NCBI GenBank assembly: GCA_020137815.1
Contig: CM035350.1
Span: forward strand, 5,208,001 to 5,272,000
Direction: 5' to 3'
Source of the DNA: Hormiphora californensis
Taxonomy: Eukaryota; Animalia; Ctenophora
DNA: 64,000 nucleotides
How positions within the stretch are numbered: position 1 is the stretch's first letter; each line of letters begins with the position of its first letter. Position numbers and translations under genes: made by a program. The notes beneath the pieces were generated by a model. That model saw nothing but the letters and a program-made list of their open reading frames with translations, ran no database searches and had not been told where the DNA came from. Positions 18,201 through 45,044 of this stretch are shown here, piece by piece.

Positions 18201-19972
18201 ATCTAATTAATAATTCATGTGCAGGTAATTATGTATTACGGTTTCTCTCTCTGTCTCTCTCTCTCTCTCTCTCTCTCTCTCTCTCTCTCTCTCTCTCACG
18301 GCCACATCTGCATCCGCTCCTAACACACACTTGTTAGGATATTGTGCTTGTCAGTTTCTTTGTAGCCCAAATCTGCATTGATTAAAACAGTTTGGCAAGT
18401 TCATGTTATTGCTTGATCACGGATCTTTGAATTTCCCTTCCCCACATTCACGATTGCCAGGCTCCAAGACCCCATTGTTTGGTTGCAGGGTAGGTCCGCT
18501 TTGTGCAACACATGCTTCCCAATGGATTGATATTTAGTGATTTCCCGGGTATGAGAAGTGTGTTATAATAGACGGCCGTGCCGGGGGATAAAGAGATGGA
18601 AGTAATTTGGTGATGATCGTTCGCGGCTTCATTTGATCAGTGATCTACATGAGTACTGCAGTAGTAGGTGCATGCTGGATCGTCTAAATTCACAAATGAG
18701 CATGTCTTGATCAGCACACTAGGCTGCACTGCACATCTTGTCCTGTCATATAATAATTAGGCTCCTGCCTGGTTATATTCGTGCGTGGGAAGGAAGATAT
18801 CCAGATTAATAATTGGGAATCAGCCAACTTTGGGCGAGACCGCTTCATCCGTCAAAATTGTAACTGCATGTACTGATCCGATTAGCTAGTTTATTATGTA
18901 TACTGTAGAGAACCTGGAACATAATGTCTTTTGTAACACTATAGTTATACGTCATCCAAACCTGGATAGCACAAAACCCTTTCCCCGAGGTCTGTTGGTG
19001 ATTTGTCCTGGACAATACTGATAATAATTACTATTATTGTGATTTGTCATCATGGTAATAATGCTTACTAGGGTCCTCTGGTCCGCCTAGCTGTGAGTAA
19101 GAGTTAGGTTGAGAATTCACGAGGGAATCGCCCGGTCCCTGTCATTGTTGCATATATTGATACCACTGATATATCATCAGATACATTCTAAGTTGGGGCA
19201 TAAATCATAGAATCCGCGGCCCACTGAATCATCCAGTAGCAGCTTGACTCTGCGAGGCAGCAATTGTTGATTGATGATTTATTTTGTTCAATCTTTGTTC
19301 ACGTTATCAGCTCTTTTTCTCTCTGTCATTATAGAAACAGCACTGCCACTAACTATTAGCTCTAAAATTGTACCATTAGTACCATTACTCATTAGTATGC
19401 AACCCCCACCAAACTATCTAACACACACACACTAGTTATAGCCAAACTGGCTTATTGTCTTGTCATTATATGGCTGCTAGCTATATTTCACTTAATTAGC
19501 AGTTTTACCTTTGAGGCTCCGAATATACCCTTTCTGTATACCCTTTCACAACAGCTTATACACCGCTGTTTTTGCAGACTTTATTTTGTGTTCTAGACAC
19601 CCCTGACATTGTGTTGATGACGTATGTGCAATGAGTATATATGAGCTGGATCATATGAGAGAACTCATGACTTTTATCCGTCCATCAACACATCTTAAAA
19701 GTCAGGAGAGAGAGTGTTTTCTGTTTAAATCTGTTTAGTTTTACCAGCTTTCAGCAATGGATAGTGAACCTCTAGTGTCTTTTAAAGCAGGAACAATTGT
19801 CAATTTTGTACAGCCTGCTTAAATAACCATACGTGAATTGGCCTATATTTGCGCTAAGTACTTACTATTTTGTGCTCTAATTCTTGTGAGAGAACGTTGT
19901 ATTCAGCTTTGTATTTCTGCCATTTTTGCATATATGTTCCCCATATCATATCCTCTCAGCTCAGATCAGAGA

Positions 19973-20518
19973 ATGAAGAAGAAGGATCACACGACCAATC
20001 AGCAAGCAGCAGCTGTCCCGCCCTCCCAGGTTGTCAGATCCAGGCGGACGGGAGCCGTTGTCTCTGTAGACCCAACCACCCTTGCCCGACTTCACCGTGG
20101 TATTCCGTCCAGAAGTAGCCCCTCTCCCACGAGTGGCACGGCGAGTAGTGGGAGTCTGCCACCACCCGTTAGGAGGCCGGTGGTTAACAGAAAGGTGTCG
20201 CTGGTGGAGCTCATTGTGGAAGCTAAGCGGGACGAGGGGTGTAGTGATAGTGATACCAGTGGTGCTGGCAGGGGAGGAAGGAGGGTCAGGGGCGGGAGAG
20301 GTGGGAGGGGTGGTAGGGGCGGCAGGATGCTGGGAGGAGGAGGGAAGAAATCAACCAGCCTCTTTGAGCTGAATGAGGACGATTTTGAGGACAATCCGAG
20401 GGAAACCAAGAAGAAGAAACCGGCTGGAAATAAGAAGGGCAAGGGTGGGGGTATGAAGAAGGCAACCAAGCCTAAGATGAGCGTGCCAAAAGGAACTGGA
20501 GGAATGAAGGGTGGAGCT
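19973..20518 (+). CDS. Candidate innexin variable first coding exon V1 (182 aa; Ser/Pro-, RGG- and Lys-rich)
   Basis: Acceptor CAG at 19957-19959, ATG at 19973 (MKKKDH..), ends ..MKGGA|GTAAGT in phase 0. Confidence 0.7.
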
Positions 20519-41962: not shown

Positions 41963-44900
41963 GGGAAATGCTCCAACATGTTGCTCCTTGGATCTCTCGG
42001 AACGATCAAGAATTTGAGCATCTTCAAGGATCTCAGTTTGGACGATTGGTTGGATCAAATGAACCGAACATTCATGTTCCTGCTCCTCTGTTTTATGGGC
42101 ACGATAGTCGCTGTTAGTCAGTACACAGGTACATATCTGGAAAAATTATTAAACGCTCTGCAACCAGATTTTAATTTCATTTATTTCAATTTTATTTCTT
42201 ATTTTGAGGACTTTCCTATTTCTCCCATCCCCCTCCAGGAAAGAACATATCGTGTAATGGGTTCGAGAAGTTTGGGGAGGATTTCTCCCAAGATTACTGC
42301 TGGACCCAGGGACTGTACACGATAAAAGAGGCATACGATCTACCCGAGTCCCAGATCCCTTATCCCGGAATTATCCCGGAGAATGTACCCGCCTGTAGGG
42401 AGCACTCACTCAAAAACGGAGGTAAGTATCTGCTACTAGACTGCAGCAGCCATGTGGGGGATGGTAGATGTAGTATGGGGGAATATGGTTTGCTACTGCA
42501 GCATGAGCTGTAGCGCGATGTTTTGTACTTGATCCAAGAGGGAGGGAGAGTTTCTTTTCAAAAAGGAGTGAGAGAGAGTGGAGAGTCTGAATCCTTTCCT
42601 CCAGATTCCTCCTCACCAGGGAAGATAGTGTGCCCTCCCAAGGACCAACTGAAGCCCCTAACTCGAGCCAGACATCTCTGGTATCAGTGGATCCCCTTCT
42701 ACTTTTGGGTGATCGCTCCTGTCTTCTACCTTCCATACATGGTATGTGATCCCCCCCCATGTGATATTGTACAATTGTTACACGTGTGTATTATTTTGAA
42801 GGGCTGGTATTACACATGTTACTTTACTGGAATGTGTATTTATCTTGAAGTACGCGGTTGTATATTAGAATACGTTGGCATTGCTGTAATAAGCAGACTA
42901 AATGCTTTTTGTGGTCATTAATAGCTGCTTGGTATACTAGGAAATTCAGATTTATAAATTACTCAAAAAGGAAAGCCATTACATTGTGGTCTCAGACTAC
43001 TTCTCTTGCAAGGGCCGTTTATTATAAACGGCCTGATCAAAGCTTAGCTCATATTTAAAGTCTGCAGAAACATGAATTATCTAGGTTTTAAGAACAAGGT
43101 ATCATGATTACGGTTGTCCAATAATAATCTCTCTCTCTCTCTCTCTCTCTCTCTCTCTCTCTCTCTCTCTCTCTCTCTCTCTCTCTCTCTCTCTCTCTCT
43201 CTCTCTTCAGTTTGTCAAAAGAGCTGGTTTGGACCGGATGAAACCGCTTCTAAAGATAATGAGTGATTACTACCACTGTACTACCGAGACACCATCAGAA
43301 GAGGTAAATCTCTCAGCTCTGATAGCAACCAATAGAATTCTAGTTTCTAATTGCCCACCCCCTTCTCTCTTATTCAGTACTCCACTTATTCGGTACTCCA
43401 CTTATTCCTAGTGTAAGACAGCGCTGTGTGAACTGACAACATCCCCCCTCAGATCATAGTAAAATGTGCAGATTGGGTGTATAACAGTATAGTGGACAGA
43501 TTGAGTGAGGGTTCCAGTTGGACCAGCTGGAGGAATAGACACGGTCTGGGTCTGGCGGTGCTGTTTAGTAAACTTATGTATCTGGGAGGGAGCGTTCTGG
43601 TCATGTTCCTTACAACCGTCATGTTCCAGGTAATAATAGGGAATAATAGGGACATAATGGGGTCATAATAGGGAATAATAGGGTCATAATGGGAACATAA
43701 TGGGATTATAATGGGATTATAATGGGGTCATAATGGGAACATAATGGGATTATAATGGGGTCATAATAGGGTCATAATGGGGTCATAATGGGAACATAAT
43801 GGGGTCATATAATGGGATTATAATGGGGTCATAATGGGAACATAATGGGAACATAATGGTATTATAATGGGAACATATTGGGATTATAATGGGGTCATAA
43901 TGGGGTCATAATGGGAACATTATGGGAACATAATGGGAACATAATGGGGTCATAATGGGAACATTATGGGAACATAATGGGAACATAATGGGGTCATAAT
44001 GGGGTCATAATTGGGGTCATAATGGGGTCATAATGGGGGTCATAATGGGGGTCATAATGGGAACATTATGTGGTCATAGTGGGAACATAGTGGGAACATA
44101 TTCTAGGTTCCATTATCCAATTATTTATCGGCCTGTGACAGATTCGCACCCGCAGATTAGAAAATTTCTTTATTTATAAAATAAAATATAAAGTTGCTGA
44201 TGTCTCCAGGTTGGAGACTTTCACACCTATGGTATTGAGTGGTTGAGACAGTTCCCAAGTGAGGAAAACTATACTACTTCCATTAAACACAAGCTGTTCC
44301 CCAAAATGGTCGCCTGTGAAATTAAACGGTTCGTACATCATTCAGAGCTGAAACAACTTGTAAACCGAATGTTGGTCTTTTTTTGACTCCAATTACTCGA
44401 GATATTTGTTTCACTGCAGTTTTACACGACATTATCTATCTGTAGATGGGGACCCTCTGGGTTGGAGGAGGAAAATGGAATGTGTGTCCTTGCTCCTAAC
44501 GTGATATTCCAGTACATTTTCCTTATCATGTGGTTTGCCCTGGCCATAACGATCTGCACAAACTTCATCAACATCTTCTTCTGGATCTTCAAACTGACTG
44601 CCATCAGATACAACTATAATAAACTTATTGCAACAGGTAAAATACACAGGCCGTAGCAAATTTACTTACAGAGTCAGACACAAATGTGTTGAATATATTG
44701 CGCGCAATTTTATATAAGACATCTCCGACGTGGTGTAGGGGTTAGCATCTGTGGCTCTCACCCACAAGACCCGGGTTCGATTCCCGGCGCCGGAACTCTT
44801 TTGCCTTTTTAAATCTTTCTTTTTATTTGTTTCTTTATTTTCAGGCCACTTCTCGCACAAGCACCCCGGATGGAAGTACATGTATTACCACATAGGGACG

Positions 44901-45044
44901 TCAGGGAGAGTCTTGTTAAATATAGTCGCTCAAAATACGAACCCTATTATTTTTGGGGCAATAATGGAGAAACTGACTCCGGCTGTGATCAAACATTTGA
45001 GAACGGGTCACGTTCCGGGGGAATACATCAATGATCCCGTGTGA
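41963..45044 (+). CDS. Innexin (gap-junction/pannexin family), constant body. Exons 41963-42128, 42239-42421, 42620-42741, 43211-43303, 43453-43629, 44210-44328, 44446-44636, 44845-45044; 411 aa from the ATG at 41978
   Basis: DDWLDQMNR, ISC..QDYCW, LWYQWIPF, LFPKMVAC, CVLAPN motifs; four hydrophobic segments; all introns GT-AG and phase-consistent. Confidence 0.96.
43632..44100. repeat. Intronic ~11-bp minisatellite (ATAATGGGGTC / ATAATGGGAAC)
   Basis: Visible tandem array in innexin intron 5. Confidence 0.9.
44724..44795 (+). tRNA. trnE-CTC: tRNA-Glu (anticodon CTC), within the last innexin intron
   Basis: 72-nt cloverleaf: TGTGG-CTCTCAC-CCACA anticodon arm, CCGGG-TTCGATT-CCCGG T arm, acceptor TCCGACG/CGCCGGA with one A-C mismatch; T-run terminator downstream and TATATAA upstream. 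Confidence 0.88.

Follow-up and report, generated by a model that had tools for sequence, protein, structure and literature searches.

Results

Organization of the innexin locus

We analysed a 64,000-nucleotide (nt) stretch of the genome of the ctenophore Hormiphora californensis (assembly GCA_020137815.1, contig CM035350.1, positions 5,208,001 to 5,272,000 of the forward strand), hereafter the window. Its plus strand carries an innexin gene in which eight constant exons encode the channel body and a row of upstream exons, here called V exons, would each supply an alternative N-terminal extension, or head, to that same body (Table 1). That the gene has this architecture of variable heads and a constant body is highly probable.

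The constant exons, joined at GT-AG introns, gave a frame of 416 amino acids (aa). The acceptor at 41963 opens this frame with the linker GKCSN, which leads into MLLLG, the start of a 411-aa body identical to the Mnemiopsis protein P0005 at 379 of 411 positions. An earlier note on this DNA had described a TACTAA branch point and a phase-0 reading of GKCSN into MLLLG, and the sequence confirmed both. Constant introns 1 and 2 were seen spliced in RNA contigs. The acceptor AG held the same position before GKCSN in the transcripts L001 and L002, two of 326 candidate stretches from a metagenome scan. The linker was identical in the window, L001 and L002 and used a different Ser codon in each of the three, which is a small sign that it is translated. 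The start of L002 resembled Ct_Edu_03, and the linker therefore seems to be old within ctenophores.

The identity of the body as an innexin was clear from several characteristics. Orthologous isoforms scored 155–158 bits against the Innexin profile PF00876 (cut-off 25). The window body has C56, C71, C278 and C295, corresponding to the extracellular Cys pairs, and WYQWIP, corresponding to the YQW-P motif at the second transmembrane helix (TM2). An AlphaFold model of the Mnemiopsis ortholog body matched INX-6 (E 4.5e-9, template-modelling score 0.67 by target), in keeping with the four-helix large-pore fold. By eye, the 216 residues of Ct_Pba_05 given in the supplement of PMC8769644 matched the window innexin, and Ct_Hca_09 from the same supplement differed from it at several residues. 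Constant exon 3 has two acceptors: 42620 was used in RNA runs X1 and X2, and 42605, which adds 5 aa (DSSSP) to extracellular loop 1, was used by one contig of run X3 (depth 3.7). In that one contig, the choice of acceptor provides a second layer of variation, located in the docking loop.

The V exons

We compared the V exons with the surrounding sequence. The six exons that had been classed as clear (V1, V3, V4, V5, V7 and V8) each start with ATG and have an uninterrupted frame whose last codon is completed immediately before GTAAGT, GTGAGT or GTAGGT, as described. Four phase-0 ATG frames of at least 100 aa ending at GTRAGT were observed, whereas 300 local shuffles gave 0.017 on average and never more than one. 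Eight of the nine V-exon start codons had a purine at position -3. A codon model trained on the coding DNA downstream ranked V1, V3, V5, V4 and V6 as the top five coding segments of the 42 kb upstream, with a GA repeat tying with V6 (score 27.7). The score of V7 was about equal in another frame (13.8 vs. 12.8), while V8 and V6b lacked coding signal (-0.9 and 2.7), and no convincing ortholog was found for any of these three. V8 and V6b thus stay as candidates without support, and V7, with its ATG and phase-0 donor, has little. V3 and V4 hold 13 and 19 ATGs, respectively, all ahead of the channel Met. Scanning through to 41978 is therefore implausible, and a transcript with either exon would yield the long protein or none.

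A junction from 36258, the end of V6, to 41963 had also been proposed. V6 is 203 nt long, and its donor is in phase 2 as assembled, which would frameshift the channel. This exon sits between homopolymer-rich assembly blocks, near a 700-base duplicate whose copies are 71% identical with 100 gaps, and an assembly error is therefore the likely cause of the phase-2 donor. The assembly is error-rich throughout 28600–37900, with homopolymer runs peaking at 35–36 kb, and further V exons may be hidden there. Vx is an addition to the earlier list of exons.

Upstream of the V exons, most AGs would open a wrong phase or run into stops; a weak AG 3 nt before the V1 ATG is in phase. V7 and V8 had been said to have in-frame stops and no AG before their ATG; V8 does have such stops, together with pyrimidine-rich AGs. 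A terminal exon that would make the V exons a separate gene had not been noticed before, and none was evident in the 42 kb upstream.

Several further sites in the upstream region were recorded. Strong donors without long ATG frames at 19092, 20642, 24473, 24863 and 36594 are candidates for non-coding leader exons of V1, V5 or the short form. A short purine-rich segment at 36880–36937, ending in AAG before a GTGATA donor and lying beside the GA repeat, is possibly another small head. The same E-box-like word, CCAACACGTG, was found by eye after a TC repeat at 20762 (upstream of V2 and V3) and at 24832 (upstream of V5).

Table 1. Exons, candidate exons and splice signals of the innexin gene in the window
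Feature	Position	Strand	Description	Basis
V1	19973..20518	+	Alternative first coding exon of 182 aa, product basic and Gly-rich; phase-0 donor; ATG preceded by AG acceptors at 3-13 nt	
V2	21325..21336	+	4-codon candidate or non-coding leader exon; strong donor only, weak start context, unsupported	
V3	21491..21859	+	Alternative first coding exon, 123 aa, acidic and basic runs; phase-0 donor	
V4	23487..24077	+	Alternative first coding exon, 197 aa, encoding a conserved two-helix head (~45 aa), then a flexible Gly/Arg/Met/His tether and, conserved at the end, CFAEI	
V5	25333..25653	+	Alternative first coding exon of 107 aa; ATG preceded by AG acceptors at 26-67 nt	
Vx	about 34572..34625	+	Short first exon in error-rich assembly stretch; start and donor unreadable	
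V6	36056..36258	+	Probable first exon, ~67 aa; donor phase 2 as assembled	
V6b	39793..39867	+	Weak candidate, 25 aa; phase-0 GTAAAG donor; unsupported	
V7	40556..40660	+	Candidate first exon, 35 aa, acidic then basic; phase-0 GTAGGT donor, good start context	
V8	41201..41293	+	Candidate first exon, 31 aa, basic; phase-0 donor, good start context	
Shared acceptor	41942..41962	+	Branch-point-like TACTAA (41942-41947), pyrimidine tract, acceptor AG	Sequence; RNA contig spliced here
Constant exon 1	41963..42128	+	GKCSN linker, canonical Met at 41978, N-terminal pore helix, first transmembrane helix	
Constant exons 2-8	42239-42421, 42620-42741, 43211-43303, 43453-43629, 44210-44328, 44446-44636, 44845-45044	+		GT-AG model

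Alternative heads in other ctenophores

Constant exon 1 as a query yielded three matches among 66 candidates, two of which were the Bolinopsis isoforms X2 and X3. Bolinopsis X1 was found in the clusters of those matches, as were four isoforms from Mnemiopsis with lengths of 575, 507, 437 and 411 aa. Bolinopsis microptera LOC134819011 (X1–X3) and Mnemiopsis leidyi ACHWQZ_G008596 thus presented six distinct heads before GKCSN plus the 411-aa form, and in every extended isoform the head was joined to GKCSN-MLLLG. The orthologs formed one well-supported clade (100/100). A seventh head, of 73 aa, precedes GKCSN in the Beroe-coded Ct_Bab_01 of the PMC8769644 supplement; compared by eye with the window exons, it showed no clear match. 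A 7-residue match of this head to the minus strand near 32650 lacked an ATG and diverged immediately, and was discarded as chance.

We aligned the six lobate heads with eight window exons, using 500 shuffles per pair; in this alignment or in a tblastn search, their best matches fell on V4, V4, V1, V5, V6 and Vx. V4 shared 77 identities with each of the heads P0004 and P0007, which belong to the 575-aa isoforms of Bolinopsis and Mnemiopsis (z-scores of 21 and 23). V1 was identical to the Bolinopsis X2 head (P0002) at 42 of 185 columns (z 8.3), and V5 to the head of the Mnemiopsis 507-aa isoform (P0008) at 30 of 109 (z 7.5). The match of V6 to the Bolinopsis X3 head (P0001; 18 of 69, z 3.7) was weak, at the level of the off-diagonal pairs. 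A tblastn search of the window with the lobate heads recovered V4 (E 1e-26 and 3e-29). It also matched P0006, the 21-aa head of the 437-aa isoform from Mnemiopsis, to 34572–34622, the site of Vx, with 13 of 17 residues identical and a within-window E value of 0.004. Off-diagonal scores stayed at the low-complexity level among these heads and exons, indicating that the heads are not homologous duplicates.

Two heads were traced more widely. A full HMMER scan with V4 gave eight homolog clusters, all V4-like, five of which reach a CFAEI-type end followed by Val, as in a phase-0 read-through of the GT; the other three stop or diverge earlier. Over 14 aligned rows, several of them near-duplicates, 20 columns of V4 were invariant. 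V4 was also 97% identical over 147 aa to the P. bachei model sb/3470832. V3 had one homolog among 63 candidates (P0084, from a relative; 74 of 93 identical), which keeps the V3 frame across six gap positions and reads through at the same donor position. No annotated fused isoform was found for V3, and a search at a cut-off of E 1e-60 returned no further fused isoforms.

V1, V4 and V5 are well supported as heads, V3 is conserved in a relative, and V6 and Vx are probable but damaged by assembly; V7, V8, V6b and V2 are unproven as heads. The six to nine channels proposed before were thus a generous count, and the gene likely yields five to eight channel versions. The core of the earlier proposal, alternative first coding exons spliced to one channel body, is borne out by the Bolinopsis and Mnemiopsis isoforms, the Beroe-coded head, the conserved donor positions and one RNA junction at 41963.

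RNA evidence

RNA contigs from four of six runs were compared with 40410–43120; matching shares were small, at 0.05–0.08 in five of the six runs and 0.00 in one. In run X2, from a near relative (95–99% alike), a contig of depth 5.9 carried 63 loose letters ending exactly at acceptor 41963. Thirty letters of this loose end were open in the channel frame and had no AG at the joint, which marks it as a spliced coding exon. Among 55 donors its best fit was V1, at a level met at 0.4% of background positions, which is suggestive only. V7 and V8 had no RNA cover in any of the four runs, an absence from contigs that proves nothing. Record 6 of run X6 also stops at 41963, with 275 further letters. As X6 is ~90% alike and these letters are maybe intron, it was not counted.

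The transcripts L001 and L002 keep sequence from before the acceptor. Their structure could reflect a proximal start for the short form, a first intron that is removed slowly or an outron that was left unprocessed. An out-of-frame ATG at 41968, embedded in the coding sequence of GKCSN, is shared by the window, L001 and L002 and starts a frame of 49–54 codons; it may reduce translation of the short form or may simply follow from the Lys-Cys codons.

Head properties

The heads were hydrophilic, largely disordered and neutral to strongly basic, with no hydrophobic stretch among them (maximum 19-residue hydropathy 1.0), and they would therefore lie in the cytoplasm. Polybasic runs occurred in V1, V3, V7 and V8. 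AlphaFold placed helices at residues 3–14 and 30–44 of V4, with a predicted local distance difference test score (pLDDT) of 72–81 over residues 1–40 and a long low-confidence tether. In the full-length model the head had pLDDT <50, and a helix across the CFAEI-GKCSN-MLLLG joint was of low confidence and was not used. Searches of Pfam, PDB sequences and the ESM Atlas with V4 and the other heads gave only weak low-complexity matches.

Gene identity and expression

We assigned the gene by elimination against Tables S2 and S3 of PMC9949713, which makes it likely to be INXM or INXL in the naming of Ortiz et al. It is not one of A–D (probe starts), J belongs to another clade, and only L and M of Table S3 remain once presence in both P. 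bachei and Mnemiopsis is required; O, G or H is possible if the P. bachei model of this gene is missing from that table. Searches by ML identifiers (e.g., ML223536a and ML07312a of INXM/INXL) returned no sequence for family naming. INXM would fit better than INXL, since the lobate orthologs lie on the longest scaffolds among the matches and the listing for Hormiphora INXM gives chromosome 1 and the isoform suffix i4 (PMC9949713). Both families are enriched in comb cells of Mnemiopsis, where INXM is found in 22, 22 and 18% and INXL in 50, 29 and 26% of the cells of three comb metacells, according to the same source. Comb-plate cells are therefore the likely site of action. Another Mnemiopsis innexin, INXJ-like, has two different C-terminal ends (P0057 vs. 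P0059, 524 and 420 aa).

Other genes in the window

A transfer RNA gene, tRNA-Glu(CTC), lies at 44724–44796 on the same strand as the innexin, within its last intron. Further downstream are a long low-complexity gene (49768–53517) and, after it, a tRNA-dihydrouridine synthase gene (53728–55811; Pfam Dus, E 3e-77). Open frames of ~320 codons each at 47398–48354 (+) and 58294–59253 (-) had no Pfam match above the cut-off; the product of the latter resembles a single-pass membrane protein.

Discussion

The best explanation of the locus, and on the whole a probable one, is that a single innexin gene uses alternative heads that tune gating and the direction of coupling, like UNC-7. One V exon would serve as the first coding exon, its donor joining 41963 and the remaining V exons being skipped. 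Upstream exons with their own ATG, used singly, would give subunits with unrelated hydrophilic heads of about 20–200 residues. Each head would probably have a promoter of its own, with the 411-aa form arising from a proximal start or a non-coding leader; we find this arrangement rather likely. Tethered through GKCSN to the pore-lining helix, the heads may work at the cytoplasmic mouth like balls or levers that alter voltage dependence and rectification, and long and short subunits are probably mixed in one octamer. Whether such gating is their main role we regard as evenly balanced. A role as gates or bias elements is favoured because the N-termini of INX-6 form a pore funnel of 18 Å (PMC5146279) and UNC-7 heads set voltage dependence and rectification (PMC7455501).

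Several observations weigh against this explanation. The lobate isoforms are automated annotations. Off-diagonal z-scores reached 3.9 in global and 5.4 in local alignments, and the V6 match is therefore only probable; tblastn of the lobate heads recovered V4 and Vx, and did not find V1, V5 or V6. Donor phase is weak evidence by itself: 16 GTRAGT donors lie in 19000–41962, with ATG frames of at least 25 aa in phases 0, 1 and 2 numbering 5, 2 and 3. Junctions from the named exons to 41963 had been predicted, and the X2 contig has a junction at that acceptor; its loose end is absent from the window within three mismatches and fits V1 at just 15 of 31 nt, and none of the named window exons was seen at the 5' side of a junction in the interval compared. 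L001 and L002, both of the metagenome-scan transcripts, retain stop-containing sequence before GKCSN with the downstream introns removed, so that the short form may be dominant. The sequons N53 and N262, one in each extracellular loop, would allow a hemichannel instead of a junction; sequons are frequent among ctenophore innexins (67%; PMC8769644). In oocytes, UNC-7L that lacked the internal Met passed no current (PMC2694797).

That last result also bears on the chief rival to gating, in which the heads are address or control tags that serve trafficking, scaffold or membrane binding, or make a non-conducting subunit that damps channels of the short form or acts as a hemichannel. UNC-7L(M121L) alone, besides passing no current, was largely retained in cell bodies (PMC2694797), and the INX-6 funnel, which measures 18 Å with an entrance of 30 Å (PMC5146279), would be too small for eight long heads. 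The polybasic runs in V1, V3, V7 and V8 and the two sequons fit such roles as well. Set against these points, six UNC-7 isoform groups, with heads of up to 168 aa, made homotypic junctions that differed in voltage dependence (PMC7455501), and the conservation of V4 extends all the way to the pore helix, which a distant tag would not require. We regard the tag explanation as a minority possibility, to be taken seriously. A head could alternatively be picked by spliced-leader trans-splicing on a long precursor with one or few promoters, a leader at a V-exon acceptor or at 41963 making the exon that follows the first. At least 56% of Hormiphora Iso-Seq reads carry a leader (PMC8527503), pyrimidine-rich AGs precede the ATG in five of nine candidates (V1, V2, V5, V6b and V8), and L001 and L002 keep sequence 5' of the acceptor with the downstream introns gone. 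Such AGs occur ~9 times per kb in the background, however; V3, V4, V6 and V7 have no pyrimidine-rich acceptor within 160 nt, and a TATAAA stands ~130 nt upstream of V4 (by eye). No spliced-leader motif was found in the window, and leader addition would be compatible with separate promoters too. This route seems improbable to us.

Two further alternatives concern whether the V exons encode parts of the channel at all. If they were 5' untranslated or upstream-ORF (open reading frame) variants, the protein would always start at 41978, at or near the equivalent of which all other ctenophore innexins found have their first Met; internal initiation is documented for unc-7 (PMC2694797), and V2, V6b, V7 and V8 have no coding support. 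V4 and V3 are conserved at the protein level, V1 and V5 match annotated heads, GKCSN differs at a silent site only, and the many ATGs of V3 and V4 would have to be passed over, all of which makes untranslated exons very unlikely. Least credible is that the V exons are separate small genes or belong to another gene. The P. bachei gene set has V4 as a model of its own (sb/3470832) and nested genes are common in Hormiphora (PMC8527503), but V4 is fused to the innexin in the annotations of two species, and V exons make up the top five coding segments in the 42 kb upstream, with no separate terminal exon evident. Because V4 has its 19 ATGs before the channel Met and is conserved up to its donor, the heads are best regarded as translated; from the sequence we would expect translation of at least V1, V3, V4 and V5 with considerable confidence.

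The closest known system is unc-7. Its 10 protein isoforms fall into six N-terminal groups (24–168 aa) with different gating, where the earlier note had credited unc-7 with two or three N-terminal isoforms; longer heads give stronger voltage dependence, and one isoform, UNC-7b, rectifies, with a ball-and-receptor mechanism proposed for rectification (PMC7455501). The principle is therefore already known. Both genes are single innexin genes with a long upstream region, alternative first exons, heads before the canonical Met and a short form (PMC7455501, PMC2694797). UNC-7 heads share segments, in that UNC-7S has 14 unique residues of 52 and HKK and DDD triplets are common to most (PMC7455501), whereas each head here is one separate, unrelated exon followed by a 5-aa linker, and several heads are kept from cydippids to lobates. 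Head function has been measured for UNC-7, while the heads described here are known from sequence. In the orthologous Bolinopsis LOC134819011 and Mnemiopsis ACHWQZ_G008596, the same GKCSN joint follows heads like V4, V1 and V5 and probably V6 and Vx; V3, V7 and V8 have no counterpart among those isoforms. Drosophila shaking-B likewise makes N-terminal isoforms of one innexin and forms rectifying synapses, but ShakB isoforms replace the sequence through TM2 (PMC7455501), whereas here the pore helix and whole channel are constant and only the extension varies.

Tandem variable first exons of one phase, spliced to constant exons, are a likeness to other gene classes as well. In the clustered protocadherin and UGT1A loci, variable first exons stand in a row and are spliced to constant ones; those variable exons are homologous duplicates and account for most of the coding sequence of the protein. 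The heads described here are short, unrelated and not duplicates, and the gene therefore does not belong to that class.

What is new is the use of unrelated, conserved heads and their occurrence in ctenophores. In agreement with the earlier note, which knew of no description, we found no published account of a ctenophore head array in literature that was mostly openly available, taken without image figures and bioRxiv supplements; the isoforms do exist as automated database records. The strings "splic", "exon" and "N-termin" have zero occurrences in PMC9949713, as do "innexin" in PMC8527503 and "isoform" in PMC13749725.

A bolder reading, which we think doubtful as a joint claim, is that the heads form a ctenophore isoform code, old and independent of nematodes and flies, on one comb-plate innexin, from which each cell type picks its head. 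The V4 ball and the basic heads would set rectification, and neighbours with unlike heads would form one-way junctions that direct comb-row signals. Head choice in this scheme may be by spliced-leader trans-splicing.

Electrical coupling is central to the coordination of comb plates, muscle and nerve nets in ctenophores. Their innexins radiated independently (PMC9949713). The innexin survey in that source trimmed sequence outside the Pfam domain and dropped transcript isoforms, and published counts equate one gene with one channel. If the gene described here does yield five to eight subunits with conserved heads, innexin diversity would have been undercounted in the very region on which gating depends. 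A solution convergent with that of UNC-7 would then also exist in the lineage that is probably sister to all other animals.

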